DNA of 64,000 bases from Candidatus Latescibacterota bacterium (GCA_965248265.1 CBDFJF010000002.1:2464001-2528000); one strand, 5' to 3'; positions 3-47,543 are shown, numbered from the stretch's first letter. Numbers and translations are program-made. The notes: generated from the sequence alone by a model not told the origin.

Positions 3-1469
3 CCCGGATTCTACAGCGCTGAGCATCATGACAGCGAAGACGGCTACGACTCGGTGGAGTGGGCGGCGGCGCAGCCGTGGTGTAATGGGGGAGTCGGTAC
101 CTTTGGAGCCTCATATGACGGCTGGACGCAGTGGGAACTCGCCCACACCCGGCCGCCCCATCTCAAGGCGATGATGCCGAGCGCGATCGCCGCCAATTTG
201 CTTGACAGAGAATTGTCCGGGGTGCTGCGGCTGGGCAGGGTGCTTTCCTGGACCATCGGCAATCTGTCCGTGGACACGGCACGCCGCGCCGGCCGGCCTT
301 TTCATCCCGAGAGCCTGGATGAGGCACGCCGCCTGTGGGTCGAGCGCGACCGCTCCAAGTGGCTGTGGTACCTGCCTCTGAGGGAGATCCCTGACGAGTA
401 CATGCCCAACATGGGTGGGCACTGGCGCCGCTGGCTGGATGACCACACTGGGGATCACTTTGGCTTCGAGGCACGCCACAAGGAGATCGACGTACCGGTC
501 CTTAACGTCACCGGCTGGTACGATCAGCAGATCGGTATGATCAAACACTTCACCGGCATGAAAGAGAATGGGCCAACGGAGCACACGCGTACCAACCAGT
601 ACCTGATCATCGGACCCTGGACGCACATTCTCGTCGACATGGTGCGCCAGGTGGGGGAGGTAGACTTTGGTCCGGAGGCGGTGCGAGATTACTACGAGAT
701 CGCCGATCAATGGTACGGCCGCTGGCTCAAGGGCAAGGACACGGCCGCGAATGAGTGGCCACCCATTCAGCTGTTCACGATGGGAGCGAACAGCTGGCGT
801 GGCGAAAACGAATGGCCGTTGGCGAGGACGCGCTTTACCGAGTTTTATCTACACAGCGGCGGTAAGGCAAACACGGCAGGAGGGGACGGTTCGCTGTCGC
901 AGACAACGCCGGTTCAAGAACCGGTCGATGAGTACACCTATGATCCGCGCGATCCGGTGATGACGCTGTTTTCGCCCGTGGGACAGCAGGAACCCATAGA
1001 TCAACGCTGTCTCGATGGGCGTCGTGACGTGCTGTGTTACGGCACACCGCCATTGGAGGAGCCGCTTGAAGTCACCGGGCCGATAACCGTCAAACTATGG
1101 GTGGCTTCATCGGCGATCGATACCGACTTCGTGGCCAAGCTGCAGGACGTGTGGGAAAACGGCTTCACCCAGGAGCTGTGTCATGGCATCGTGCGGGCCC
1201 GCTATCGCGATTCCTGCGACAATGACAGTTTGATGACACCCGGTGAAGTCTATGAGCTGACGATCAAAGTGAACCCCACAAGCAATCTGTTCCGGCGCGG
1301 ACACTGTATTCGCCTGGACATCACCAGCAGCGACTTTCCGAACTTCGATCGCAACCACAACACGGGTGGCAACGACTACGCCGAGTCGACCTTGATGGCA
1401 GCTCGACAGACCGTGTTCCACGATGCCAGTCGGCCGTCGCATGTGATTCTTCCGGTGATTGCCCGGTGA
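3..1469 (+). CDS. CocE/NonD family hydrolase (peptidase S15-like); 5' end lies outside the window
   Basis: Frame open from the window edge (EDGYDSVEWAAAQPWCNG). Nucleophile motif GASYDG, GWYD and GPWTH motifs. C-terminal PepX_C-like domain (YDPRDP...ITSSDFPNFDRN). Confidence 0.9.
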   Translation, partial: PGFYSAEHHDSEDGYDSVEWAAAQPWCNGGVGTFGASYDGWTQWELAHTRPPHLKAMMPSAIAANLLDRELSGVLRLGRVLSWTIGNLSVDTARRAGRPFHPESLDEARRLWVERDRSKWLWYLPLREIPDEYMPNMGGHWRRWLDDHTGDHFGFEARHKEIDVPVLNVTGWYDQQIGMIKHFTGMKENGPTEHTRTNQYLIIGPWTHILVDMVRQVGEVDFGPEAVRDYYEIADQWYGRWLKGKDTAANEWPPIQLFTMGANSWRGENEWPLARTRFTEFYLHSGGKANTAGGDGSLSQTTPVQEPVDEYTYDPRDPVMTLFSPVGQQEPIDQRCLDGRRDVLCYGTPPLEEPLEVTGPITVKLWVASSAIDTDFVAKLQDVWENGFTQELCHGIVRARYRDSCDNDSLMTPGEVYELTIKVNPTSNLFRRGHCIRLDITSSDFPNFDRNHNTGGNDYAESTLMAARQTVFHDASRPSHVILPVIAR

Positions 1470-1499: not shown

Positions 1500-3284
1500 T
1501 CTCAATCGGCGTGTAAGGGAAACCACACATTGCCGTGAGGTGGCCGATACACTCATGAGAACAGACGCGCAGGTGAGTCAGAGGGAGCGCCGGGGTGGAC
1601 CGTCGCTTGCTCACAAGCCGGCACCATGCCGGCCTCCGCAGACATCCGAGTACCCTCCTGCCGCCGCCGCGAGCCGGAGAAGGGCCCCCTCTACCAGATC
1701 TTCGCTGAACATCTTGAGACCTTTCGCCAGCAAGCCCGAACCTCCGAGCACCGCCTGCCGTTCCACGTCGAGAAGGAGATGCGAGCTTACCTCGAGTGCG
1801 GGGTGCTGGCATACGGGTTCGTGCGGGCGCGTTGTGAAGAGTGCGGCAAGAGCCGGGCGGTGGCATTTTCGTGCAAGAAACGCGGTTTCTGCACCTCGTG
1901 CGCCGGCCGGCGCATGGCGGATACGGCGGCCCGTCTGGTGGACGACGTGTTGCCGCACGTACCGGTGCGGCAGTTCGTACTGAGCTTTCCCTACGAAATC
2001 CGCTACCGACTGGCCTGGGACGGCGAGTTGATCTCGGCCGCACTTTCGGTGTTTCTGCGCGTGATCGGCCGCTGGTATCGACGCCAAGCGCTGGCCTCTG
2101 GGTACGCCCAGGGGCCAGCGGTTCCGTCACCTTCGTACAGCGATTCGGGTCGTCCTTGAACCAATCCCCACGTGCACGTCCTCATGCTCGACGGGATCTA
2201 CGTCGATGGGGACGAGGGACCACAGTTCGTGCTGGCGCCGCCGTTGACGGACGACGATGTGCAACAGATCGTGCAGACAAGCGCACGCGGATTATCCGGC
2301 TGTGTACGAAACGCGGCCTGCTCGACGACACCCAGACCGACACCCTCACCGACGAAGAGCCTGTGCTGGCCGCCATCACTGCGGCCTCTGTTCGCGGCCT
2401 CATCGCCACGGGTGAGCGCGCTGGCCAGCGGCTACGACGAGTACTTCGGGATCCGGCCACAGGGGTACGCACGGGGCCTTTGTGCTTTGCCTCGCGCGGT
2501 TTCTCCCTGCACGCAGAGACCCGGGTCTCGGCCGATAACCGTCTGGGCCTCGAGCAATTGTGCCGCTATGTCGCCCGACCCGCCCTGGCGGCGGGACGAT
2601 TGCGCATCATCGACGCCGACCAACTCTCCTTCGCGCTGAAGACGCCCTGGACAGACGGCACCACCCACCTCGTGCTCTCACCTTTCGAATTGCTCGAGAA
2701 ACTCGCCGCCCTTGTACCGCCGCCACGGCTCAACCTGATACGATATCACGGCATCCTGGCGCCCAGCGCCCGAGACCGCGCCAAGATCGTGCCGGGATGC
2801 GGAAACGAGTCCGAGGCACAGTCCGAGTCGACCCACCGGCCCTGTCCCCATCGCCTGTCCTGGTGCCAATTGCTGGTGCGCGTGTTTTCCATTGACGTTA
2901 CAGAGTGCCCCGACTGCGGGGGCCAGATGAGAATTGTTGCTGCCCTGACGGACCGCGCTTCGATTAGGTCTTACCTTGAGGGGGTCGGTCTGCCGGCTCG
3001 GCCTCCACCAATCACACCGGCACGGCCTTCTCTGCAGTCTGAGCTCGAATACGCCGCCTGATTCGAGCGGGTTCCGCCTGATCGAGGGGATCGATGCGCC
3101 TGAATCGACCTTACGGAGCTGCAAAACCGCCAAAAACCCATCCTCAGCCCTGAATCCAAGACCATCATGCTTGGCGAGCTGAGCGAAACGCACATCGCGC
3201 CCCTCACAAAGCCCAAAGTTCCACTCGACACCAAGCCCCCAAAGAATCTAAACTAACGATAAAGGGCTCTTATCGTGCCTAACC
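1500..3284 (+). mobile_element. ISCR/IS91-family element; right (oriIS) end at 3284, left end approximate
   Basis: The transposase is followed by a ~220-bp non-coding tail ending CTTATCGTGCCTAACC, then GTTC (3285-3288), a known IS91-family target tetramer. terIS was not located. Confidence 0.7.
1626..3061 (+). pseudogene. IS91/ISCR-type rolling-circle (HUH) transposase, frameshifted
   Basis: N-terminal zinc-binding region (YLECG...CEECG...FSCKKRGFCTSC), VQRFGSSLN, HUH motif PHVHVL, GFSLHA, LCRYVARP, LIRYHG and C-terminal CPDCGG. The motifs are split across frames, with shifts near 2113, 2162 and 2283. Confidence 0.9.
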
Positions 3285-3723
3285 GTTCGGTCTCATGGTT
3301 TGTCTCCACTATTTGATGAGCACTTCACCGTCATGCGCTCAAACTGAAAAAACGCGGACTGTAAGGCGAACGATGGGTCCGAGCGGCAATTCCGGCACGG
3401 ATTGTGTCGATCTACCGAAGGCGGTACTCGAGCAGATCGACCAATACACGCCTAGGGTGTGACGGCGGATCAATGCTTTCACCTGTTGGTAGTTTGGTGG
3501 GGATGCGACCTGGGCGACGTTACCGACCATCACGGAATGCAGACGCCCTCGGTCAAGTCCATCAATCGACAGGAACGCGATACGATTTCTTGGTGATGAG
3601 TTCGTGATCCGACATACGAGTCATCTCGAAAGCATTGTCAGTCAATGGCAGATAGTAATGGGTTTCAGCTTGCTGCTTGATGAAACCCTCAGCGTAGGCG
3701 CAGTTCCTATACATACCGAAGGC

Positions 3724-3932
3724 CCTGAATCGAGCGCACCGCCTGATCCCACAGGATCGATGCGCCTGCAAAACCGCCAAAACAACATCCTCAGCGCCGA
3801 ATCCAAGACCATCATACCCCGGCGAGCTGAGCGAAACGCACATCGCGCCCCTCAAAAAGCCCGAGGTTCCACTCGACACCAAGGCCCTGAGGGATCTAAG
3901 CTATCTATAACGGGCCCTTATCGTTCTTATCC
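3724..3932 (+). repeat. Second copy of the IS91 non-coding oriIS tail, without transposase
   Basis: Aligns with 3057-3284 from the stop-codon context to the end (e.g. GAATCCAAGACCATCAT, GGCGAGCTGAGCGAAACGCACATCGCGCCCCTCA, GTTCCACTCGACACCAAG). Has an internal deletion of about 18 bp and ends CTTATCGTTCTTATCC. Confidence 0.9.
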
Positions 3933-4070
3933 GTAAGGGTGTGGGTTGTTTTTTACGTGATTTGGCAAGAAATAGGGACCCTGATTCCGGGCACGAATGT
4001 ACTTTGGGTGTAAGCACTTACGCCCAAACCGGGAGGAAGTCCCGGATGGGGTATCCGCAGGAGTTAGTCG

Positions 4071-4778
4071 GTGCCTAGCATTCTAATTGCAGATGACGAC
4101 CAGAGCATGTGCCTCACATTGAGCATGATGCTAGGACGACAATGGGACGTAACGGCGGTGAACTGTGGTCAAAAAGCGATCGACCATCTTTCCAAGCGGC
4201 CGACCGATGTGGCACTCGTCGATGTTTACATGCCAGGCATTGGCGGGTTGCAGGTGCTGCGTGCTTTGCGAGAAAAACGTATCCCCACGGATGTGGTCAT
4301 GATTACCGGCCAAGGGACAATAGATCTCGCTGTCGATGCCATGAAATTGGGAGCAAACGATTTCCTCGTAAAGCCCCTCGCCACGCCAGTCTTAATTGAA
4401 AGGATATCCGAGCTCATGCGGTTGAGACACCCCTTTCGGAGCATCCTGTCTAGACGGCTGGACGAATATTTGAAGAGCAATCTGGCCAATGTGGCCCTGA
4501 ATCTCAAACACGTGTGCCACCAGTTCTGTATATCTGAGGGTTACGTCTGCCGGCAGTTCCGTGAAGGTTTTGGTACGACGTTTCGTGCGCGGTTGAACCG
4601 TCACCGGATCGATGAGGCAAAGCGGCTCATCGCAAATTCCACTCCTCTCCCGATGAAATCCGTCGCGCAGCTCTGCGGATACAGGAACCAACGACGATTC
4701 TGTGAAGCCTTCAGAAGGCTTGAAGGGCTCACCCCAACAAACTATCGATATGGCCTATCCGTTCCCAACCGACGATGA
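4071..4778 (+). CDS. Response regulator, receiver domain plus AraC-type HTH
   Basis: ILIADDD, LVDVYMPG, MITG and FLVKP receiver motifs. C-terminal VAQLCGY...FCEAFRRLEGLTPTNYR. GTG start after AGGAG. Confidence 0.88.
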   Translation: MPSILIADDDQSMCLTLSMMLGRQWDVTAVNCGQKAIDHLSKRPTDVALVDVYMPGIGGLQVLRALREKRIPTDVVMITGQGTIDLAVDAMKLGANDFLVKPLATPVLIERISELMRLRHPFRSILSRRLDEYLKSNLANVALNLKHVCHQFCISEGYVCRQFREGFGTTFRARLNRHRIDEAKRLIANSTPLPMKSVAQLCGYRNQRRFCEAFRRLEGLTPTNYRYGLSVPNRR

Positions 4779-5112
4779 CCATTGAGAGTTGCCACGCCCC
4801 ACCGTATCCGCGTCAAGCGAGCTCCAGGGATTGAGTCCGAGATCGCGCGTGTCCGGGCCGACGACCAAAAGCGTTGGATAGAACGCGGATCCGTGAGGGC
4901 AGCACCGTATTCATCTCGCCGCCGCTTTGCTGCCACTATTGCGATGACGTTCCGTCCAGTAGTAGCCTTTCCGCTTAGTTGCACAAAAACCGAATCAATT
5001 GTCAACAATACCCTTTTGGGCAGATTGGTTCGCCTCTATAGTTCGACTGCGCAAGTTGAGAATTGGTACCACCACCACGCTTGATTCAGTGACAGTCAGG
5101 AGGCTAGGCAGG

Positions 5113-6177
5113 ATGGGACACACTCCTATAGTGCTGATAGGCCTATTTACGTCACTACTGACCTTGGTTAGGCCTGCCGACTCAACGGCGATCAGGGTCT
5201 GCGTAGACTGCCCGGTTGGGGCCCCTAACTTTCCAATCACGGCTGGCCACGCCTTCGTTCAGATGATTCCAATGGCTGGTCCCCAGGTCGGGAACCAGAA
5301 TCTGGTCTATGGGTTTTACCCGGCTGGCAACAATCCATTTGGAGCCGGCAAGGTGCGCAATGACAGCAAACGTCCCTGGGACTTTTGCATCACCTACAAT
5401 GTGACCCCTGCTCAGTACAACGCTGCTGCGGGAACTATCAACGCCGACATCGCAGCCCCCCCCGGCTACAACTTGTTCAGCAATAACTGTGTGGACTGGG
5501 TCAACAAAGTCACAGCGGCAGCTGGCATTGCTCTTCCGAATACCAAGAATCGAGCAGGCATAGATGACCCGAACGCGCTTTGGTCCTCGCTCAATTCAAT
5601 TGGCGTTGGAGGCACGTCTGGAGGCGGCACCGTCACGAACAACCCAAACCGCGTTTCAGTGGGTGGAACCCCGCTGGAATCCGCCTCTCCACGCAACTTC
5701 AGCTTTGAAGGAGTCGAGTACTCTGGCCATACCGATCCGTTCGACTTGGCGAGTTTCATGGATCTTCCGTCAAATGTCGACACCCTGGACAGCCATACAG
5801 TCAAAACTTCAGATGCCTACAACATAACTGTCGAGGGGGTTGACCCTGCCAACGTCTTGATTTCGGTCGACTGGGGAGATGGCACCGTCTATGACGCTCA
5901 GATGGTGGAGTTTTCACATATTTACGAGGTGCCTGAATCATACATGGTCTCCCTGCTCATCATCGATCAGGCGTCTGTCTACCGCTTCTTGATCCCAATC
6001 CAGATCGCTGATGATGTAAGCACCCAATCGAGAACAATCGGTGTCGAGACACTTCCTGCTGCGACAGGCATCAATCCGAACTTCGGCGACGATCCCATAC
6101 AACTCATCGATGAGCCCGAGGATGGCACTATTGTCGCACCGGCTAGCTGGGGAGAAATGAAGCAGCTGAGAAGATGA
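5113..6177 (+). CDS. Secreted protein: papain/NlpC-like catalytic domain, PKD-like domain and C-terminal SWGxxK motif
   Basis: Signal-peptide-like N terminus. Motifs GHAF, YGFYP and YNLFSNNCVDW, PKD-type VDWGDG, and ending VAPASWGEMKQLRR. Start placed at ATG 5113. Confidence 0.65.
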   Translation: MGHTPIVLIGLFTSLLTLVRPADSTAIRVCVDCPVGAPNFPITAGHAFVQMIPMAGPQVGNQNLVYGFYPAGNNPFGAGKVRNDSKRPWDFCITYNVTPAQYNAAAGTINADIAAPPGYNLFSNNCVDWVNKVTAAAGIALPNTKNRAGIDDPNALWSSLNSIGVGGTSGGGTVTNNPNRVSVGGTPLESASPRNFSFEGVEYSGHTDPFDLASFMDLPSNVDTLDSHTVKTSDAYNITVEGVDPANVLISVDWGDGTVYDAQMVEFSHIYEVPESYMVSLLIIDQASVYRFLIPIQIADDVSTQSRTIGVETLPAATGINPNFGDDPIQLIDEPEDGTIVAPASWGEMKQLRR

Positions 6178-6233
6178 ACCGGCCAAAGGGCCCAGCGAAT
6201 GCCATTTCGATATGCGCGGGATCGTCACCAGGC

Positions 6234-6256
6234 GTGGTGGCTGTGCCGTCATTTTT
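6234..6256 (+). terminator. Possible intrinsic terminator
   Basis: GTGGTGGC-TGT-GCCGTCAT stem with several G-U pairs, followed by a T run, downstream of the 5113-6177 gene. Confidence 0.3.
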
Positions 6257-6322
6257 GATTCAACTGAACCGCTCCTCGGTTACGCGGCCTGAAACTGAGA
6301 TTCTCAGAGGAGGGGAAATCCA

Positions 6323-6860
6323 ATGCGTCAGACCCTAAGGTGCGGATTGGTTCTGCTCCCTACGGCACTTACATGCACCGGCCTGGGAGGTCTCCTCGAC
6401 GGTGCTTGGGCAGCTGAGAACGGGGATGCTGTCAGTTTGCAAGAGACCGCGGTTGAGGGAACAGAGCAGTAGAATTGATCCTTGATCCTCAGGCCGTGTC
6501 CGAGGGTTACGTGAATGTGATCGTTGACTTGGACGGGGATGGACTTGAACCGAGCACGGACGACTGGTAGGTCCACCACTCAGCACTAAGGTCAACAACA
6601 GAGGCGACGGCACCGGCACGTTTGACTTTGTCAAACGTGAAATCGAAGCGAACGAGGACGTCGAACTTGATATCCACTACTTTTCAGATGGGGGCGTGTT
6701 CAGTGGTGCACACTTCGTAACTGTCGCTGGCTGGTTCGACGATGGAACAACCCGCAAGCTCTGTTTCAAGGATCCCCTAACCGGGGGGACGACTGTCGAT
6801 TGCTTTTTGATTGACGTGCTTGCCAGCTCGAGGATACGCCTTGGGCCAAAGATACAATGA
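6323..6860 (+). pseudogene. Decayed secreted protein, C39/papain-like peptidase remnant
   Basis: Strong RBS (GAGGAGGGG) and a signal peptide (MRQTLRCGLVLLPTALTCTG...). Broken by stops and frameshifts. The last segment reads FDFVKREIEANEDVELDIHY...GAHFVTVAGW...FKDP. Confidence 0.5.
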
Positions 6861-6883
6861 CTCCGGTTAAATGGATACCCCAA

Positions 6884-6904
6884 TGCTGCCTATCGTGCCT
6901 AACC
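6884..6904 (+). repeat. Short oriIS-end remnant
   Basis: TGCTGCCTATCGTGCCTAACC; the last 14 nt plus the following G are identical to the IS end at 3271-3285. Confidence 0.65.
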
Positions 6905-7133
6905 GAAAAGCCTTGGCTACCGCCACGCAGCTCCAAGAGCGAGGTAGATGGAAGAACCTCCCAGACAAGGTGGAGTTTGTAGTGGTATTAATCCATCCGT
7001 ACTACTACGGATGTGCAAATGTGCACCTTGTGAGCCAATTACATACTCCTTAAAAACGTGCTGTCGTCATTGCCTGGGATATAGTGCTTGCCCAGGCATC
7101 AAACAACCAAATGAACCCTCGAAGGAGAACAGC

Positions 7134-8246
7134 ATGCTTCGCCTTGTGCTGGCAATCGCCATCGTGTTGTGCTCAAGATCTGTCTCCGAGGCTGGAAAAC
7201 CCATCATCGGATGCTGTGAGAAGGCAAACAATGCCGGCTCAACTGACTGCGGCAATATCCACAACTCGCTTGAACAGTTGTACTGCGGTGGCGGACTTAT
7301 CCAAGGCACCTACAAGGCAGGCCTAGTGTGCAAGAAGTCTCCCGGTCCTGGCTGCGAAGCTACCACAACAACAACACCAAAAGACCAAGACGATGGATCG
7401 AGGAACTTTACCTGTGTGGGAATTCCAATAAACCAAGAAGGTGGTATCTTGAGTTGCTCCTCAACGAACGACGAACCAGGTTTGGCCGATACACTTTGGA
7501 TTCCAGAGGAACTCGGAGGGGGAGCAATCGTCACGGAGGACTTTCAGGTGGACTTGGTGATAGGGTATGAGCCCTCTGCGGATGACGAAGAATTGTTCAT
7601 GTTTTCGATTCAAGTGTTTGAGGCGACTGCACCATCAGTGGTTCTCCCGATACCGACAAACCCCTTGTCTATTAGGGAGCCTAACAAAGAGACGGGTCCA
7701 AACACGGTTAGCGCGACAGGTGGGATAGGAATTGGCAGCTGGGATTCAAGAACGAAAGCAGTGGTTGGTTCTTTCAGCACGACTATTGTGAATGATCTCT
7801 TCACGGAGCAGTCCCCGCTGTATTCGTTTCCCAGTCTTGATGGTACCTTTGACGATGAGACTGGAATTGCCTCACTTGCTTGGAAGGCGAATGTCTTTTG
7901 GCCCGATGACTCACTGCCAACTATTATGACTGCAGTCTCGGAGGAGGTATCTATTTCGCTCCCGGAAGTACCCAAACTTCTACAGAACTATCCAAACCCT
8001 TTCAATAGTACCACCACGATTCGTTTCGACATGCCTTACAGCGGGAGCGTGAAGGTCTCAATATTCGACCTGTCAGGTCAATTGGTGCGGACACTCGCAG
8101 ATGTCTATCTGCGTCAGGGATCCCATCACATGACTTGGTCTGGGCTAGACAATAGGGGCGGCACGGTCGCAAGTGGTGTGTACGTATGCCAGGTTAGCAC
8201 TGGGAGTGGTTGGACAGAATCGAGGCGAATGGTTCTACTGAAGTGA
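7134..8246 (+). CDS. Secreted protein with Cys-rich N terminus and T9SS type A (FlgD-Ig) C-terminal domain
   Basis: AAGGAG RBS and signal peptide. GCC...C...C...C...C module followed by a Thr run. C-terminal LLQNYPNPFNSTTTIRF...VASGVYV...RRMVLLK. Confidence 0.85.
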   Translation: MLRLVLAIAIVLCSRSVSEAGKPIIGCCEKANNAGSTDCGNIHNSLEQLYCGGGLIQGTYKAGLVCKKSPGPGCEATTTTTPKDQDDGSRNFTCVGIPINQEGGILSCSSTNDEPGLADTLWIPEELGGGAIVTEDFQVDLVIGYEPSADDEELFMFSIQVFEATAPSVVLPIPTNPLSIREPNKETGPNTVSATGGIGIGSWDSRTKAVVGSFSTTIVNDLFTEQSPLYSFPSLDGTFDDETGIASLAWKANVFWPDDSLPTIMTAVSEEVSISLPEVPKLLQNYPNPFNSTTTIRFDMPYSGSVKVSIFDLSGQLVRTLADVYLRQGSHHMTWSGLDNRGGTVASGVYVCQVSTGSGWTESRRMVLLK

Positions 8247-8483
8247 GTGTCAGGGCACCTGCGAGTAGAATTATGCTGCCACAGTGCGGTACCGCGTCAC
8301 CCGTACAACTGACCGCTTGTTGATTGCCGATACACCGTAACTACAAGCACCCATTTTTGTAACTATCTGTACCCATCGCCGGCTTGACTCCGATTCTCTA
8401 GCTCTCCGTCCATGCAGTCCTTCTGAGCACTTTGAATCGCCCCGGGGTTGCCGGAGGCTCCTTTTCTTGAGAGGATTGGAGTC

Positions 8484-9715
<1,232 letters not shown>

Positions 9716-9745
9716 CCGAGTCTCCGGAAAACCCGGGGCGATTCA

Positions 9746-10897
9746 AACCGGATCCTCGGGTACGACTTCACCCCGCATCTGCCCGCCCTGTGGTACGATG
9801 ACGAACCCGATGCCGAGCACTTCCGCGACGAGTATGAGCGTGCCATCCATGCCAGATTGGATGAGACCTACTACCTTCCGTTACGCGATTGGTGCAGCGC
9901 GCATGGCATCGACCTGACGGGCCATCCCGCCCACAGCGACGAGATGGCGCCGCTGCGGTACTTCCATGTGCCGGGCCAGGACACCGTCTGGCGCTCCGTT
10001 CTCCCGGACCATCCCAGCGCGTTGGAGGGCAAGGATTCGCCCCAGGCCAAATGCACCTCATCGGCGATGATCCACGGGCGCGGGCGCCGCAACGCCAACG
10101 AGTGCTGCGGCGCCTACGGACACGAGCTGACTTTCGATGAGATGATGTGGCTGGGCAACTGGTGCCTGATCCGCGGCGTGAACCTGCTGTTCCCGCACGC
10201 CTTCTACTACTCGGTGCGCGACGGCCGCGGCGATGAGCGCCCGCCTGATGTCGGGCCCAACAGTGATTGGTGGGATTGTTACGGGGAATACGCCGATGCA
10301 TGCCGCAGGATATCCTGGCTGAACACCGACTGCCGCCACGTCTGCCATGTCGCCATCCTCGCCCGGTCATACCGCGCCGGTTGGGCGACGGCGAAGGTCT
10401 GCTTCCAGAACCAGATCGACTTCAACTATCTCGACGAGCGACACCTCTGGGAAGACGCAGTCGTCGACGCGGAGGGTATCCATCTCGCGTCGATGGACTA
10501 CCGTGTTCTGGTCGTGGAGGATGAGCCCGACGCGCGTGCTGCCGCTGCGGTGGCCGTGCTCGAACGCGCCGGTCGCGTCATCCGCTATGAGTCTGGAGTG
10601 CGCGACGAGCGGTTGATCGCAGAAATCGATCGGCGCGCACCGCGCGACGTCACGGTATCCCCCGCCGTGCCCGGCCTGCGCGTCCGGCACGTGGTCAGGG
10701 AGAGGTGGCACTGGGTCATGCTGTTCAACGAAGTTGCCGCACCTGCGCAGATGGAGATCGACCTGTCGGCGGTCAACGGCCAGGTGGAACGAGCGATCCT
10801 CTTCGAGCCTAGGACCACCCAGGTCATTGACCTGCCGGCAGACAGACGCCTGCGATTGGCGGGGCATCAGGTACAGGTGATCGGCGTGCCAACTTGA
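9746..10897 (+). pseudogene. 5'-truncated glycoside hydrolase (GH106/alpha-L-rhamnosidase-like)
   Basis: The frame is open directly from the IS3 right end (NRILGYDFTPHLPALW...YYLPLRDWC...LTGH...ECCGAYG...RGVNLLFPHAFYYS). There is no native start. Confidence 0.7.
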
Positions 10898-10936
10898 TTA
10901 ACAGCCTGACTGTCTGACTGCGCCGTCCGGGAGGGC

Positions 10937-12292
10937 TCAGCCGCTGCTGCGGAAACTATAGAGGTGGGCGTCACGCATGCGGAAGACCAGTTTGAGGCGC
11001 CGGCCGGCCAGCTCGGACAAGCTGCGGTCACCCGGCCAGCGCACGGTGGCGAGGTCGACCGTTCCCCTGGTTGGGACGTTGCCGGTGAAGACGGCGTGAT
11101 CGTCGCCGGAGAACCCCTGGAGCGGCCGACCGCCTTCGTCCTGGACTTCGACCTGCATGTGGCCGCCGCCGTCAAGCGGATAGCCATCGTGGTGGCGCGT
11201 CGTGGAGGCATTGAGCAGGAGATCGCCGCCGGGCCAGGTCATGGGGACGGTCACCAACTTGCCCTCCATGAAGCCGGCGCTGATGGAGGCGAAGCGGTCC
11301 ACGGTGATCGTCGCCAACCCCACGGCACTGTATTGTGGCGGCGCTTGCTTGACGTGGAAGTGGCAGTCGCTACGGCCCCCGAAATAGAACCAGAGCTGGT
11401 TACCCACCTGGACAGGTCCCGACGAGCAGCAGGTTGACCAGCCCAGGTTCCAGGGGAAGGTCGGACCGATGAAAGGCTCCGTCGTCGGCGGGCGGTGCCA
11501 CTGCTTCAGGTCGTGGCTCCAGGAGAGCTGGACCTCGATGAAGTTGGGCACATTGTGCCAGCGCTCGAGCATGCCGAGGTGAAGGTCGCCGTAAGGGAAG
11601 CCGGGCATCCCGTGGTATTCGATGTCGGCGGCGTCGATGAGATCGGGCCGGTGGATCAACTCGGGCTCGGAGAAGGATAGGAAGTCGTCGCTGCGGGCGA
11701 TGGAGACGCAGCGTGTGCCGTAGCGCTCGCGTCCCCTGGCTGTCTTCAGCGTGATCACGTACTGCCCGTCCACGCGCTCGGGCCAAAGGTACTGGACGTC
11801 GCCGCAGGGCGTCAGGATGCAGTCGCCTTCGGTCCAGTGTAGACCGTCCTCGCTGGTGGCGCCGAAGATGCCCCGGGCCTGCCCTGAGATGCCGACGCGG
11901 ATCATCTTGAAGGGGGCTGCGGTATCGTCGGGATCGTACATCACGGACGGGCAGTTCGCCGGGCGCGCGACGATGTTGTTCTTCGTACTCCCGCCGTATT
12001 CGATGGCGCCCACGACCAGTCGCTCCCAGTGTAAACCGTCATCGCTTTCGGCCACGCACATGATGGGATCCTCGAGTGGCTTGTAGGTGGTGTAGTACAG
12101 GCGCCAGCGCTCGCCGAGCCGAAGCACCGAACCGTATAGCGTGATGTTGGTGCCCTCCCAGGGCTCTTCGGGGCGCAGCACCGGCTCGGGGAAGATATCG
12201 GCCTGGTGCCACTGGCGGGTTAGCCGCTGGTGGTCCTCGATCCAGAAGTCGTCGAGGAGTAATTGGCTTCGGGTCAGGTCGGGCTCTCTCAT
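10937..12292 (-). CDS. Beta-propeller glycosidase-like protein (GH32/43/130 clan-like)
   Basis: PEEPWE, AESDDGLHW, ATSEDGLHW repeats, DRFAS and C-terminal FRMRDAHLYSF. Paralog of 18381-19832. Confidence 0.7.
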   Translation of the reverse strand: MREPDLTRSQLLLDDFWIEDHQRLTRQWHQADIFPEPVLRPEEPWEGTNITLYGSVLRLGERWRLYYTTYKPLEDPIMCVAESDDGLHWERLVVGAIEYGGSTKNNIVARPANCPSVMYDPDDTAAPFKMIRVGISGQARGIFGATSEDGLHWTEGDCILTPCGDVQYLWPERVDGQYVITLKTARGRERYGTRCVSIARSDDFLSFSEPELIHRPDLIDAADIEYHGMPGFPYGDLHLGMLERWHNVPNFIEVQLSWSHDLKQWHRPPTTEPFIGPTFPWNLGWSTCCSSGPVQVGNQLWFYFGGRSDCHFHVKQAPPQYSAVGLATITVDRFASISAGFMEGKLVTVPMTWPGGDLLLNASTTRHHDGYPLDGGGHMQVEVQDEGGRPLQGFSGDDHAVFTGNVPTRGTVDLATVRWPGDRSLSELAGRRLKLVFRMRDAHLYSFRSSG

Positions 12293-12595
12293 GAGGTTCA
12301 CTCTCGCGGTGACGACTACTCTTCTCCATCCCAATAGTTTTGGATTAAACCTTCCTGTGCGCGTGACGTGCTGAAGATCGAAAGGCGGTGTTCTATTCTT
12401 CTCCCAAATTTTTGCTCTGGAACATCCACGATGCGAACTTTCATACTCAGTCTCCTTCTGGATGCCGTCAATGTGAGGAGATTATACGCGTTATCTGAAC
12501 GCCGCCTGAATCGACCCTTCGGTCAACGTTGAGTTATAGCTTGACTCACTGACGATTATACGTTTAATCCACACTGATCGCCCCTGAACCGACAC

Positions 12596-12720
12596 CATGG
12601 TCTCCAGCGGTCCCTCGATCACGGCGAGACCTGGAGTCCGCCGTCAACATCATCGAGATTGCTGCGGCCGCCCATCGCGCCTTCACCCAATCTACTGCCT
12701 AGCGGCGAGTGGAACTTCGG
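12596..12720 (+). pseudogene. Small Asp-box (BNR) protein remnant
   Basis: Translates HGLQRSLDHGETWSPP (SxDxGxTW) in otherwise non-coding DNA. Confidence 0.35.
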
Positions 12721-12731
12721 ATTGATGTAAC

Positions 12732-13478
12732 ATGCTCAGCGATCAGTACCTCATTGAAATTGGGTTGCGTCGCGATGAGGTTCCGCATTTCTCGACCTAC
12801 CCCTTTTGCCTGGACGCAGTTCGTCATCTTAAATCGCTGGAACTTCATCCCGGCGTGACCTATTTCGTTGGTGAGAATGGGTCTGGGAAATCGACGCTTT
12901 TGGAGGCGTTGGCTGTGGCGTGGGGATTCAACGCCGAAGGAGGGACGAAAAACTTCAGTTTTGGATCGCGCCGATCACACTCGGACCTGCACAAATACTT
13001 GAGATTATCGAAGGGAACTCGAAGGCCCGAGGATGGTTTTTTCCTGCGTGCCGAGAGCTTTTTCAACGTGGCCACCGAGATCGAGCGCCTCGATGACGAA
13101 CCGGCACCTGCGCCGCTGATTATTGAGTCATATGGTGGTGTTTCGCTTCACGAGCAGTCGCACGGAGAATCGTTTCTGGCGCTTTTTATGCATCGATTCT
13201 CTGGTAATTCACTATTCATTCTCGATGAGCCGGAGGCAGCGTTATCACCCACACGGCAAATGGCGATGCTTTCCCGAATGCATCAACTGATTGGAGAGGG
13301 GAGTCAATTCATTATCGCAACGCATTCTCCTATCATCATGGCATATCCAGATGCGAAGATCTTCGCACTCGGTGCTGACGGTGTTGATCAGGTGGCGTAC
13401 GAAGACACCGAACACTTCCAGGTCACGCGGAGTTTCCTCAACTCCCGCGAGAAAATGCTCCGAGAGCTCATGTCGTAG
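12732..13478 (+). CDS. Stand-alone ABC/AAA_21-type ATPase (COG3910-like)
   Basis: Walker A GENGSGKS, QSHGESF, Walker B ILDEPE and IIATHSP. Confidence 0.9.
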   Translation: MLSDQYLIEIGLRRDEVPHFSTYPFCLDAVRHLKSLELHPGVTYFVGENGSGKSTLLEALAVAWGFNAEGGTKNFSFGSRRSHSDLHKYLRLSKGTRRPEDGFFLRAESFFNVATEIERLDDEPAPAPLIIESYGGVSLHEQSHGESFLALFMHRFSGNSLFILDEPEAALSPTRQMAMLSRMHQLIGEGSQFIIATHSPIIMAYPDAKIFALGADGVDQVAYEDTEHFQVTRSFLNSREKMLRELMS

Positions 13479-13623
13479 CAGATGAGCGCTGGATTTGGTT
13501 GAGATTCGGGGGATCGGCGCAAAAAACGGCCCGGAGCCTTTTCCGCGAGTTGGGTGTGGCTGATCTTCCCGGTTTGCGGGCGGCGAAGGGCTTCGGACCC
13601 AAAACCATTCAGAAGGTTGCCCC

Positions 13624-14580
13624 ATGACAATAGCGATGACCGATAAACAGAAAGATGAACTCAACGCGCAGGGGTTCACGGTGTTGGAGAGTGTTTTGGA
13701 CCCGTCCGAGTTGGAGCGCCTGTCGGCGGCGATGGACGAGGTGGCGGACCAGCTTCGAAGCGTGCGTGGCGCAGGTCCCGATGACAGTGTCGTCGTCCGC
13801 AACTCGGTGGCTCGCCACGAAGCCATATTGGACTTGCTCGATCATCCCCGCATTCTGCCGTTGGTCGTCGATGCGATCGGCTGGAACATTCAGAATCGCG
13901 ATAGCACGTTTGATTACAAAGCCCCGCAGCCTGGCAACGCAGATCCCGACCGGCTGTCGCTCGGTTGGCATTTCGACTACGAAGAAGAATTCGCTGGCAC
14001 GACGATAGACGGACGCATGCCGCTGCTGGACTTCAAGGTCGGGTGGTACGTGTCGGATCATACTGAGCCCGGTCACAGCACCATCCTTCTCGTGCCCGGT
14101 AGCTACGAATGGACTCCGGAACAACGCGCCACCTGGGAGACCTGGCTTGATCCCGAGGAAATTTTCGAGTTGCGCGTTCCGGCCGGCAGCGCCATGCTCT
14201 GGCGGCCCACCGTCATGCACAGTGTGACTCCGAACCTTTCGAAGAGCTTCCGCAAGGCCCTCTACATCAGCTACGCGCCCAGGTGGATACGGCCGAGCGG
14301 GTACGTTGAGCAGGATCCAGAGTTGATCGAACGCAGTTCGCCGATCCGGCGGCAGCTGTTGGGGGCCACGGGCGATGGCTCCCCTCTGCTGGGAAGAGAT
14401 CCGATCGGGAATCCGTCGTCGCAATACTGGTTTACCGACAACTGGGAAAGTGTTCCGCTGAAGGCGTGGGCTGAAGAGCGCGCTGGTCCCGGGCCGTACG
14501 ACTGGGGACTGGGTTACGGGGCGACGTTTACGAAGGGACCGGGCTTCCAGTTTGACCGCGTGAAGATTCCGAAGCGGTAG
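13624..14580 (+). CDS. Phytanoyl-CoA dioxygenase (PhyH) family protein
   Basis: QGFTVLESVL, WHFD (HxD), LVPGS and distal His in MHSVTPN. Confidence 0.85.
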   Translation: MTIAMTDKQKDELNAQGFTVLESVLDPSELERLSAAMDEVADQLRSVRGAGPDDSVVVRNSVARHEAILDLLDHPRILPLVVDAIGWNIQNRDSTFDYKAPQPGNADPDRLSLGWHFDYEEEFAGTTIDGRMPLLDFKVGWYVSDHTEPGHSTILLVPGSYEWTPEQRATWETWLDPEEIFELRVPAGSAMLWRPTVMHSVTPNLSKSFRKALYISYAPRWIRPSGYVEQDPELIERSSPIRRQLLGATGDGSPLLGRDPIGNPSSQYWFTDNWESVPLKAWAEERAGPGPYDWGLGYGATFTKGPGFQFDRVKIPKR

Positions 14581-14605
14581 TCTTGAAGAGGAGCTTTGCT
14601 GAGTG

Positions 14606-15730
14606 ATGGACGCAAGAGTGAAACAAGCGGTTCGGCGACTTCTGCAGGAACTCGTCAATCAGGATCGAGCCAGGGTGGTTGTCTCCGCATACGCGTCGGG
14701 ACCCGGCTACTGGTTCGGTGGAGGCAACCTGCTCCGGGACCAGGACGGGGTCTGGTGGTTGTGCGGTCGGTATCGCAATGCCGGGGACTCGAGGACCGGA
14801 TTGGCCGCGGGAGAAAGAGGACTGGAGTGCGCCGTGTTTCGCTCCGACGACTCTGCCCGCAGCTTCGCCAAAGTGTTGAGTTGGTCCAGAGAGGATCTGT
14901 CCGGACCCGGCGCCCAAGTTGTGTCGATTGAAGGAACGGCTCTGCATCGGTTGGCCGACGGCACAGTGGAACTGTTCATTTCTTCAGAAAAAGAGCGTCC
15001 CTACCCGGACCATCTCACGTCCTATCAAAAACCAGGCACGGGAGTGTGGTCGATCGACCGCATGGCTGCGAGATCGGTTGAGGAGTTGGATCCTGCCACA
15101 CTGGTACCCGTATTGGAGAATCGCGACATGCCGGAGTATCTGCACCTGAAAGATCCGGTTGTATTTGACGACGCGACAGGAGCGACTGTCATGTTGTTCT
15201 GCTCTCATCCCCACACCTGGGCATCGGGTAATACAGGCCTGGCCATCCGGCGTCCGGACAGCACGTATTTCGAGATCGAGTCCTGGGAGGTGGTATCTCG
15301 CGGCGCTGCCTGGGATGTAGCTTCCACGAGGATAACAGGATGCGTTCGAATCCCGGCTGTCGGGGTCCTCTCGAGTGAGCGGCCCTTTACGGCGTATTTC
15401 TACGATGGCAGCGAATGTGTCCGTGAACTGGAGGAGAGCGACCGGGCGCACAAGCGGCCGCGGGGCTATTCATGCGAAGAGATCGGTGGGGCTTTTCTCG
15501 GGTGGGACGATAGCCTCGCCGACCTTGACCGACTCTCGGCAACAGAGCCTTTTTTCGTATCACCACACGGTACCGGTTGCAGTCGATACATGGACGTTGT
15601 GCGTACACCGGATGGCCTGCTCGCGACGTGGCAACAATCGCAGCCAGACAGATCGCAACCGCTGGTGAGTCACTTCATTTCCCTGGACGCGGTTGAGAGT
15701 GCACTGCAGGAGCGTAGCGCAGGGTGCTGA
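14606..15730 (+). CDS. Conserved hypothetical protein, probable beta-propeller (glycosidase-like)
   Basis: Long ORF with GYWFGGG, GRYRNAGDSR and HLKDP. Its stop codon lies inside the oriIS remnant. Confidence 0.6.
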   Translation: MDARVKQAVRRLLQELVNQDRARVVVSAYASGPGYWFGGGNLLRDQDGVWWLCGRYRNAGDSRTGLAAGERGLECAVFRSDDSARSFAKVLSWSREDLSGPGAQVVSIEGTALHRLADGTVELFISSEKERPYPDHLTSYQKPGTGVWSIDRMAARSVEELDPATLVPVLENRDMPEYLHLKDPVVFDDATGATVMLFCSHPHTWASGNTGLAIRRPDSTYFEIESWEVVSRGAAWDVASTRITGCVRIPAVGVLSSERPFTAYFYDGSECVRELEESDRAHKRPRGYSCEEIGGAFLGWDDSLADLDRLSATEPFFVSPHGTGCSRYMDVVRTPDGLLATWQQSQPDRSQPLVSHFISLDAVESALQERSAGC

Positions 15731-15771
15731 GGAATCTAAATTATCTATGAAGCTGCTTACAGTGCCTAACC
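15727..15771 (+). repeat. oriIS-end remnant (45 bp)
   Basis: CTGAGGAATCTAAATTATCTATGAAGCTGCTTACAGTGCCTAACC matches the ends of 3057-3284 and 3724-3932. Followed by GTAC. Confidence 0.75.
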
Positions 15772-15900
15772 GTACCGATTTCAGCCGACGCTCCTTACGC
15801 AGCAATCTGGTGCTGCGCTGGGAGTACCGTCCGGACAACTCCCTGTTCGTGGTCTGGCAGCAGAATCACAGCGCCTCTCCCGACGGGGCCGAATCCGCTT
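15772..15900 (+). pseudogene. 3' fragment of an outer-membrane beta-barrel gene (DUF5916-like)
   Basis: TDFSRRSLRSNLVLRWEYRPDNSLFVVWQQ begins immediately after the oriIS remnant. Confidence 0.6.
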
Positions 15901-17175: not shown

Positions 17176-17376
17176 CTGCCGCGTCCGTTACTCCAGTAGC
17201 CATCGCAGGCAGCCCGCCCTTTCTGCATTTCACATCTTGCTCATATCTTTTAGTATTGCCTCTTCTATCACGATCTTTGGCAGAGCACTGTTCCCCATTT
17301 TTCACGTCACCCATCTTCCCATGGAGTGTTGGTTGTGAATGGATCAGAAAGTCGCGGTTCCGGCCCGGAACCGAGC

Positions 17377-18336
17377 ATGATGCTATCGCCGGCGCAGTTG
17401 GACGAGTTCAAAGCGGAGGGGGCGGTAGCGATTCCAGGATTGGTACCGCCAGATGTGCTCGACGGGTGGCGGGCCGAGATACGCGCGGCCTGCTCCGGCG
17501 GTGTCGACCTCGAAGACCCCGGCACCTGGCCCAACGGGCGCTGGGCACCCACGGGTGGCTGGCCAGAGCTCAGCCCCAACCTGTACGACTTGCAGAGCCT
17601 GCAGTCCATCGTGGAGCAGATCGGTGGTGGCGCCTTTGCCCCGTCCAGCCCAGCGGGGTTGCCGCCAAAACCGCAGGTGCCGATGACGCGGGTGATCCTG
17701 CCGGATGCCCCGGGCACGGAGTGGGCCCCCCCGGTCAACAACGGTCACCTCGATGGGTACGCCGGAGGCTGGGGCGGTGGGTTCATGGCCATCTTCGCAG
17801 TGCTGCTGTGGGATGTCAGCAGCCCCAGGGGCGGAGGCACGGCCTACTGGCCAAGGTCCCACCTGGCTAACCACCGTCATTTCCTCAAGCACCCCGAGCA
17901 GTTCGACGGCTCCTACCTCTTCACAGAGCCAGTGAAGAGCGGCGGGCACCTGGCGCTCCTGGAGGGGGACCCCAGTGTGGGAGAGCTGGTATGCATGACC
18001 GGACGAGCTGGCGATGCCATGCTGTTCCACGGCCTCACCACGCACGTCGGCTCGTCCAACGCGGCGGGGTCGCGCCAACCGCGGGTGACACAGTTTGCGC
18101 GGTACACCCACAGGAAAATGCGCGAGCAGGCACCGATGGTCATGTTTCCTGACAAGGATGGCAAGCCCTGGTCGCGCCCCAAAGACCCTGGCAACACCGC
18201 GGTGGCTGAAGAGCAAGAGAAGGCAACAGGTTTTCTACCGCCGGATCACCCGGGCCGGAAGCTCGAGCGATACGACGTACCGCAGAATCTCTGGAAATAC
18301 TGGGCCCCTGCTCTCAACGCCGAAGCCCCTGTGTAG
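17377..18336 (+). CDS. PhyH-like dioxygenase
   Basis: LDEFKAEGAV, GHLDGY, WPRSH and GDAMLFHGLTTH. Start position uncertain. Confidence 0.75.
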   Translation: MMLSPAQLDEFKAEGAVAIPGLVPPDVLDGWRAEIRAACSGGVDLEDPGTWPNGRWAPTGGWPELSPNLYDLQSLQSIVEQIGGGAFAPSSPAGLPPKPQVPMTRVILPDAPGTEWAPPVNNGHLDGYAGGWGGGFMAIFAVLLWDVSSPRGGGTAYWPRSHLANHRHFLKHPEQFDGSYLFTEPVKSGGHLALLEGDPSVGELVCMTGRAGDAMLFHGLTTHVGSSNAAGSRQPRVTQFARYTHRKMREQAPMVMFPDKDGKPWSRPKDPGNTAVAEEQEKATGFLPPDHPGRKLERYDVPQNLWKYWAPALNAEAPV

Positions 18337-47280: not shown

Positions 47281-47543
47281 CCCTCTTCTTCCAGTTCCGC
47301 GGCATCAGCTCATCCACTTCGAGTTGTGCTCGCTGCTCCGTGAGTGGGTTGCGTAAATCCTTCGAGGAGCTTTCGAAGATAGCGCTGAGACGGAACGGTA
47401 AGAACCGACAAGCGGCCATTGTAGCATAGTCTATATTGGTTGGATCTAGGTGTCGAGTGGGAACTTAGAATGGAGGAACGACGACGAAACCCAATCCAAC
47501 CGCTGCTGAGATAGCAGTAAGTCTGAGACTGTGATACCTGTCC

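Follow-up and report, generated by a model that had tools for sequence, protein, structure and literature searches.

Background

ISCR elements have, to our knowledge, been studied almost solely on resistance plasmids, and their movement on those plasmids is still largely inferred. We analyzed a chromosomal stretch of 64,000 nucleotides (nt) from Candidatus Latescibacterota bacterium (GCA_965248265.1, contig CBDFJF010000002.1; G000:C2:2464001-2528000, hereafter the window), in which a decayed ISCR-like element of the IS91 family is followed on the same strand by three further copies of its origin end (oriIS). An earlier interpretation, made from the DNA alone and referred to here as the sequence-only reading, had proposed that each of these ends closes a segment of cargo and that short origin tags turn ordinary gene blocks into mobile cassettes that stack in tandem. 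The coordinates of the motif copies and of the other features of the window are counted within the window, and those of loci elsewhere in the genome are preceded by the contig (C1 or C2).

The general structure of ISCR elements has been described (PMC13393415), and in the so-called sandwich arrangement, presented in PMC12772301 with reference to the work of others, a gene is captured by two sequential copies of oriIS. For IS801, one-ended transposition in vivo yielded right-end fragments of 229, 360 and 679 nt in 26% of the events, and the element was found to carry along 290-1431 nt of upstream DNA (PMC3189936). Any fragment that contains ori801 is considered potentially mobilisable, and the one-ended events make deletions that are bordered by the origin end (PMC6354349).

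Results and discussion

A distant ISCR-like element and its origin end

The motif that recurs in the window is, as judged from its sequence relationships, almost certainly the origin end of an ISCR-like IS91-family element of a distant lineage. The near full-length element to which it belongs (1508..3286, + strand) has a left (ter) end with a GTGT..ACAC hairpin at ~1508-1510, which was located by alignment to C2:853480-853596 and C1:1274936-1274791, and an origin end at 3284 that is followed by a conserved GT; the element of the window therefore measures ~1.78 kb. The two ends are unlike: one is the terminus shared by 38 full-end profile hits in the genome, the other is the left end with a hairpin of its own. 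The transposase gene of this copy is a pseudogene (1626..3061, + strand) that is spread over three reading frames with at least two frameshifts (open reading frames (ORFs) 1626-2159, 2172-2639 and 1841-3061). Pfam recognized Zn_Tnp_IS91 in the first frame (PF14319, 74.3 bits) and positions 88-178 of the Y2_Tnp profile in the third (PF04986, 70.3 bits), and by our own reading of the sequence the second frame contains the motif PHVHVL. The element is 78% identical (blastn) to the intact copy C2:1842353-1843783.

A search of the genome with the Y2_Tnp profile (PF04986) recovered 16 matches, 4 of which lie in open frames of 486-534 amino acids (aa), so that the intact transposases that had been called for appear to exist and could act in trans. 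When an intact paralogue (L011, an ORF of 471 aa) was compared with ISCR transposases of plasmids ('IS91 family'), the identity was 40-41% across 97% of the paralogue; one of these transposases is located between qacEdelta1-sul1 and rmtD2 (plasmid NZ_KT935446, L015). The best NCBIfam model of this paralogue was ISCR clade Ia (NF052416), with 373.6 bits against a curated cut-off of 925, and the IS91 equivalog (NF033538) gave 103.1 bits against a cut-off of 125; because both cut-offs were missed, we assign the element to a distant ISCR-like lineage outside these two narrow models. In L015 the sequence ...TTCCTATAC is found ~240 nt after the transposase stop, and we take it to be the oriIS end of that element by comparison with ISCR consensus ends and not from an annotation. 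In the present genome the elements end in ...TCCTATAC or ...CCTAACC, 225-235 nt downstream of the stop codon of the transposase. The combination of Zn_Tnp_IS91 and Y2_Tnp, the best-scoring model and the position of the end together bear out the identity that the sequence-only reading had given to the motif. Two derivatives with internal deletions, which resemble miniature inverted-repeat transposable elements (C2:853480-853673 and C2:2652228-2652298), consist of the left end (55-117 nt) joined directly to the origin end (35-75 nt).

Four co-oriented origin ends in the window

The window contains one nearly whole, dead copy of the element and, downstream of it, three origin-anchored stumps that point the same way. 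All four copies of the motif were found on the + strand with ends at 3284, 3932, 6904 and 15771, precisely as claimed. Copy 1 (3057..3284, + strand) is the tail of the element and carries a 7-bp hairpin (ACGATAA/TTATCGT). Copy 2 (3724..3932, + strand) is a 5'-truncated stump without transposase sequence, of the 209 nt that had been assigned to it; it matches positions 75-299 of the nhmmer tail profile (E 1e-34) and aligns with the tail of copy 1 at 77% identity over 230 columns (E 3e-42). Copy 4 (15720..15771, + strand) is ~52 nt long instead of the 45 bp given before, has a degenerate hairpin and 2 changes in the terminal 14-mer, and aligns (15720-15773) with the tail at C2:2428480-2428533 at 83% identity over 54 nt. 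Copy 3 (6882..6904, + strand) had been taken for a minimal tag of ~20 bp. It consists of 23 nt, namely the 3' half of the origin hairpin and the terminus, and because the right end of another element, X, directly precedes this half hairpin, we regard it as a split origin and not as a minimal tag. A further origin-end fragment is located on the opposite strand (47397..47466, - strand; nhmmer hits C2:2511456-2511404 and 2511466-2511401, E 4e-5).

The exact 14-mer TATCGTGCCTAACC occurs twice in the window (3271-3284 and 6891-6904) and a third time with 2 mismatches (15758-15771). A loose search of the window for this 14-mer (≤ 3 mismatches) is by itself not significant, as it gave 6 hits with 3.2 expected and the same number was reached by 10 of 100 shuffles; the recurrence of the motif is settled by the longer alignments and not by the loose count.

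The strong form of the original proposal holds that tags of 20-45 bp are sufficient and currently working origins, by which blocks of genes become mobile cassettes that stack. Short origin-anchored fragments of 35-52 nt are indeed present at several loci (among them C2:2387245-2387289, C1:1059410-1059450 and C2:973757-973791), four transposase frames are open, and copy 4, which provides the stop codon (15728-15730) of an intact gene, begins no more than one codon away from where that gene naturally ends. Nevertheless, we consider this form improbable: the 20-bp copy misses half of the hairpin owing to the insertion of X, copies 2 and 4 are without the hairpin fold and copy 4 has a changed terminus, no segment of the window was found elsewhere and no variant forms were found in the contigs of the sample, and the segments start with remnants of genes and elements instead of clean gene blocks. 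As working mobilisers the short tags are unsupported.

Origin-anchored stumps throughout the genome

Scanning of the genome with profiles of the end and the tail yielded a catalogue of 87 origin ends, which includes weak hits and in which some entries may be false. A full-length copy was linked to 5 of these 87 ends; the other ends extended over 25-60 nt (n = 5), 61-120 nt (n = 23), 121-240 nt (n = 20), 241-600 nt (n = 20) or more than 600 nt (n = 3), or were of undefined length (n = 11). Contig C2 holds 78 of the 87, mostly between 0.57 and 2.8 Mb. A tblastn search with the four open transposases gave 55 fragment clusters, which by our own count comprised ~36 with the C-terminal (origin-side) part only, 2 with the N-terminal part only, ~10 internal fragments and 6-7 of full length. 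For the terminal 15-mer a degenerate regular expression was also tried, but it proved unspecific and was dropped (55 hits versus 35 in the reversed sequence).

The truncations bear on an alternative in which whole elements inserted independently, after which deletions, recombination and other insertions removed their left parts, without any cargo. Such random erosion should leave left and right stumps equally, whereas ~36 C-terminal fragments were recovered against 2 N-terminal ones and 71 ends are tail-only or short stumps. We regard this alternative as possible and on the doubtful side, and return to it below.

The ends also show a common direction locally. Among neighbouring pairs at ≤ 10 kb, 31 were on the same strand and 11 on opposite strands (label permutation, p 0.003), and same-strand runs of 11, 7, 4, 4, 3 and 3 ends were found, the four ends of the window forming one such run. 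A full-length copy is first in three of the runs: that of the window, C2:1134-1158 kb and C2:2759-2802 kb. Transposons of the HUH single-strand type insert with a strand bias that is tied to replication, and it could be argued that the co-orientation reflects such a bias with respect to the replication fork, with simple insertions and without stacking; 53 of 86 ends are indeed on the minus strand. Yet contig C2 is largely one GC-skew arm and its positive-skew surroundings hold ends in both orientations (24 plus and 44 minus), arranged in local runs. The runs thus do not follow a replichore-wide strand bias, and at the six junctions open to judgement the outer flank did not continue the inner one, which makes this explanation scarcely credible. 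Contigs C1 and C2 themselves look like opposite GC-skew arms.

Origin ends coincide with breakpoints. Six outer junctions abut cut genes of which the missing part is not found across the stump: window 3285, window 15772, C2:1150259, C2:1144601 (UxuA), C2:1137524 (ApbA) and C2:2692498 (GH31). At window 3285 the first four codons (ATGAGACCGAAC, reverse strand, 3285-3296) remain of a gene that belongs to a family of 871-aa secreted proteins, and the start of this gene with its upstream region (3287..3378, - strand) is 80% identical to C2:1884193-1884284 and also matches C1:863697-863757; a tblastn search with a paralogue found no body of the gene near the window. At window 15772 the end is followed by a gene remnant (15774..15884, + strand) that is equivalent to residues 773-808 in a protein of 842 aa; the remaining ~770 codons were found nowhere in the genome. 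In the array at C2:1134-1158 kb every end is again succeeded by a cut gene: C2:1150259, for instance, by the final third of a member of the 871-aa family (95% identical to C2:572047-573112), and C2:1144601 by UxuA from profile position 175. A Pfam test for split genes, applied to 82 flank frames at 31 stumps, recovered no split family (0/31), with low power, as hits were scarce among the frames and were obtained on both sides for only 2 stumps. The association of origin ends with breakpoints and the co-oriented stacks, both anticipated from the window, thus recur in the genome. The 871-aa family has at least 12 paralogues (C2:570456-586960, 1761483-1946828, 2780568-2783195 and others), several of which adjoin or are cut by origin ends (window 3285, C2:1150259 and C1:1059606).

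In the run at C2:1134-1158 kb the last 36 codons of a gene and the end of its convergent neighbour, located upstream of the full-length copy (C2:1158328-1158168), recur with 96% identity at C2:1134269-1134108. As this recurrence directly follows the last end, the 24-kb array is bracketed by a direct repeat whose second copy is truncated where it meets the origin end.

The dinucleotide that follows the end

The sequence-only reading stated that the base after the end is always G. This holds within the window (4/4), but not genome-wide, where G follows 27 of the 38 ends that reach the last profile position and GT follows 26 of them. A second subfamily, ending in TTATCCTCACTAAGC, has GC after 18 of 22 ends (two C1 hits without tail context were left out). 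At the three junctions with alignable flanks (window 3285, after C2:1134272, and the GH31 fragment described next) homology begins 2 nt past the end as defined here, and the dinucleotide (GT or GC) is therefore part of the element.

Probable footprints of stump movement and gene capture

Pairs of stumps that have a common left edge but different flanks were found for lengths of ~214 nt, of 239 nt (at C2:2204651 and at C2:2211478) and of 210 nt. Two further units of 239 nt, at C2:2691340 and C2:2692498, are identical and again have different flanks. Each is composed of 78 nt found nowhere else and a 161-nt tail. The tail, cut at GAAC within CACGAACGG, is 99.4% identical to that of the intact copy located at C2:1842-1844 kb. 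The 923 nt between these two units are an internal fragment of a GH31 gene (residues 131-436), 96.3% identical to the sole full copy (C2:1239187-1236851). The edges of the fragment are exact, with the origin plus GT on the left and the left edge of the 239-nt unit on the right, and no other parts of the captured gene copy were found anywhere in the genome. Terminal micro-duplications directly follow the origin end in two places (18 nt at C2:1156212-1156230 and 24 nt after C2:2691340). Independent insertion followed by erosion leaves unexplained why identical 239-nt units stand in different surroundings, why the GH31 fragment is bounded exactly by element edges, and why the micro-duplications occur. 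The GH31 capture fits one-ended rolling-circle transposition, and its route may have been read-through from an allele that was lost or foreign, or a switch of template.

Content of the segments between the ends

The idea that each origin end closes a segment stands, but the segments proved to be mosaics of element ends and remnants. They do not qualify as ordinary gene blocks. It had been proposed to look for the same units of cargo and origin at other loci; a tblastn search of this genome with window proteins gave no near-identical recurrence.

To the left of the ISCR-like element lies the 3' part of a gene for an S15 / X-Pro dipeptidyl-peptidase (3..1469, + strand; Pfam Peptidase_S15, and PepX_C with profile positions 3-216 of 217 and hence a complete C-terminus). 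The segment that follows copy 2 opens with the left terminus (GGGTGTGGGTT...) of element W (3937..4065, + strand), a remnant that is fused to the gene of a response regulator with an AraC-type DNA-binding domain (4071..4778, + strand; Pfam Response_reg, HTH_18 and HTH_AraC). Next come a secreted protein (5113..6177, + strand) with a weak, sub-threshold PKD match in Pfam and only a self-hit in the genome, a stretch in which we read in-frame stops (6323-6860), and the right end (...AGTCCGGTTAAATGGATACCCC) of X, a low-copy inverted-repeat element (6824..6881, + strand; nhmmer, E 2.8e-7). Beyond copy 3 an IS3-family insertion sequence is located (8433..9750, + strand; Pfam rve and HTH_21), which contains an ALIL frameshift pseudoknot at 8762-8878 (Rfam RF01497, 100.9 bits) and has six further copies in the genome at 91% identity. 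Upstream of copy 4, Pfam identified an AAA-type ATPase (12732..13478, + strand) and a PhyH dioxygenase (13624..14580, + strand), which are followed by the intact BNR/sialidase-like propeller gene (14603..15730, + strand; homologues of 370-380 aa aligned end to end) that takes its stop codon from copy 4. The GC content is 50-54% at 3-8 kb and 60-66% in the flanks. Host genes carry Por_Secre_tail sorting domains.

Various features of these segments were also seen elsewhere. The relatives compared belong to other genera, none of the same genus being present in the collection. W is multi-copy in these relatives, at ~80% identity and with a different upstream flank at each copy; its terminus of ~130 nt (GGGTGTAGGTTCTGATTTACG...) occurs several times per genome (L016-L023) and continues there into an ORF beginning ATGGAAAATACGCAGG, whereas the present genome holds the remnant alone. 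Neither the W segment nor the tails gave a hit in Rfam. PhyH genes stand beside origin ends at several loci (window 13624-14580 and 17326-18336; L024, L040 and L050), and the PhyH DNA of the window is 85% identical to the PhyH of the relative G011, without neighbours common to both. The contigs of the sample include a form that skips 8478-9590 of the IS3-family element, with 23 other letters in between, so that the sample may be variable for this insertion (8433-9750) or for one related to it.

Other elements in the origin hairpin

The origin hairpins are themselves struck by other insertion sequences. The 17-mer at the end of X has 10 matches in the genome, of which that at C2:387973 looks like chance; 7 of the 9 true ends abut the 3' half of an origin, inside the loop of the hairpin. 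Two complete pairs of X ends (C2:2412006-2412502 and C2:2652299-2652784) are located within the loop of an origin hairpin, with a duplication of 8-10 bp. X has inverted ends (GGGGTATCCATTTAACCGGACT...) and unrelated interiors in the two complete copies, and was also found at C1:1237239 and C1:1235098. Another element, Z (~C2:2689560-2691120), lies in the tail of the intact copy C2:2687646-2689420, where it splits the origin hairpin after ...ACCGAT. Its ends are CTCTTTAGGCG... and ...CGCCTAAGAG, it encodes an IS110-family transposase (Transposase_20, E 8.5e-13), it is also listed at C2:582296, C2:2763233 and C2:2759491, and collapsed traces of 8-10 nt were noted in other tails. These observations suggest that ISCR origin ends are the target of this IS110-type element.

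It can be envisaged that resident origin junctions act as landing pads: the transposase that nicks at origin|GT would also join incoming strands there, ordered arrays of units of segment and origin, all in one direction, would grow by accretion, and the hairpin would be a specific target for the IS110-family element and for X. We put this forward as an unlikely, speculative extension. If it were true, landing-pad arrays would constitute, in this bacterial family, a counterpart of the integron platform that does without an integrase.

Relatives and sample contigs

By BLAST the tail could not be traced in the relatives: of 40 other genomes only 1 gave a match, and that a single one, as compared to 21 matches in the present genome. 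Same-strand runs of C-terminal transposase fragments are present in two relatives, G018 (40 matches) and G015 (19 matches). Matches to the PhyH, ATPase and amidohydrolase genes lie at separate places in the relatives, an arrangement that does not discriminate between stacking and the usual decay of synteny, and the neighbours that PhyH has in the window were absent at seven PhyH loci of the relatives (1.5-kb flanks).

Sample contigs confirm the assembled order: they bridge 3284 together with 3724 (3177-3850), 6904 (3984-8462) and 15771 (14450-15827). Skip joints at origin ends and skips of unit size were not found in them. A single back-joint from 6881 to 3909, with 1-2 letters in between, was rejected as a circle, as it reproduces the paralogous locus C1:1237239, where an X end meets half an origin.

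A proposed one-ended rolling-circle origin of the stack

The mechanism that we favour, with somewhat better than even confidence, is that the stack of the window arose by one-ended rolling-circle transposition. The HUH transposase would nick at the origin end and the strand transfer would run back through the element; an early stop would then leave an origin-anchored stump, and transfer past the left end would carry upstream DNA along. Repeated one-ended events of this kind, landing at or next to an existing origin junction, would have made the stack grow, after which X, W, IS3 and decay would have overwritten it. The observations on which we lean are the identity of the end and its precise common terminus, the excess of stumps, the co-oriented runs, the cut outer genes, the open transposases and the one capture elsewhere in the genome. 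From these we infer that the junctions of the window were made by rolling-circle events and not by later deletions, that resident origin junctions would have been preferred landing sites, and that stumps may at some time have moved in trans. The tandem stacking of cargo units that the sequence-only reading envisaged is plausible, with one good example at another locus of this genome.

A number of results weigh against this explanation. Only 5 of the 38 ends are followed by GTTC, the canonical target of IS91, and no ter-like tetranucleotide was found at the left edge of the two 214-nt copies. The intact GH31 gene was not the direct donor of the captured fragment, because it is without mini element or insertion. 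Identity of the tails along the array at C2:1134-1158 kb does not change monotonically with the distance from the full copy, so that no age gradient is seen there, and this full copy has an internal 30-nt deletion that is absent from the others; in G018 the intact copy is not first in its run. Within the window, copy 1 alone of the four folds into the sub-terminal hairpin, which argues against a system that is still live, and the tail copies are mutually 77-85% alike; the events are therefore old, or the copies came from different sources. A search for donors with eight window proteins (tblastn) recovered for none of them a second, near-identical copy in this genome; five of the products gave a self-only result, namely the secreted PKD-like protein, the ORF at 9857-10897, the ATPase, the BNR protein and the response regulator, the best other match of which was at 38%. 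Circular junctions were not found, nor was any alternative arrangement, in a search that covered 4 runs of 1 sample, as contigs only.

Part of this evidence speaks for independent insertion and subsequent erosion, as introduced above: the tails are old and diverged, the window products have no near-identical second copy, and the window carries debris of at least three further elements (W, X and IS3). Copy 3 did arise in this manner, with the end of X placed in the origin hairpin, and the IS110-family element likewise splits the origin of C2:2687646-2689420. Bardaji et al. also concluded that rearrangement, and not one-ended transposition, had produced most of the natural IS801 fragments (PMC3189936). 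For the stack as a whole we nonetheless keep to one-ended transposition, given the asymmetry of the truncations and the footprints described above.

Comparison with known systems

The chromosome, with its 87 ends, four open frames, several subfamilies and at least one captured fragment, represents a natural long-term record of the leftovers of one-ended transposition. A full tail, a 52-nt stump and half an origin are at hand as possible substrates to establish how much of the origin end is needed.

With the ISCR and IS91 elements the present element shares the HUH transposase with Zn_Tnp_IS91 and Y2_Tnp domains, the two unlike ends and an origin end at ~230-240 nt after the stop (...YCCTAWMC here, ...TTCCTATAC in L015). 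As in ISCR elements, 5'-truncated copies keep the origin end beside unrelated genes, and copies in the same direction sandwich genes (PMC12772301). It differs in that its protein identity to ISCR transposases is only 40-41%, that its scores fall below both NCBIfam cut-offs, that it resides on the chromosome of an environmental bacterium with metabolic and secreted-protein cargo and no resistance gene among the genes examined, and that the number of stumps per genome is far higher (87 ends).

IS801 of Pseudomonas syringae similarly leaves right-end fragments of defined length and carries upstream DNA (PMC3189936, PMC6354349), and the 161-nt tail described here is cut at GAAC like the IS801 mini elements. 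The conserved flank is in our case GT or GC, depending on the subfamily, and not a tetramer of the GAAC/CAAG type, and the excess of origin-anchored stumps is much stronger than the 5/17 reported for P. syringae. The Helitrons of eukaryotes are also rolling-circle HUH elements, with 5'-truncated copies that have one defined end and with capture of internal gene fragments (PMC4778049); their transposase architecture is unrelated and they belong to another host domain, so that the analogy is one of mechanism only. Since capture and stacking are already in print for IS801 and for the ISCR sandwiches, the proposal made here is an existing idea in a new host: the locus offers a neat example, from an environmental bacterium, of a gene-shuffling element that is already known, and reveals no new mechanism or system.

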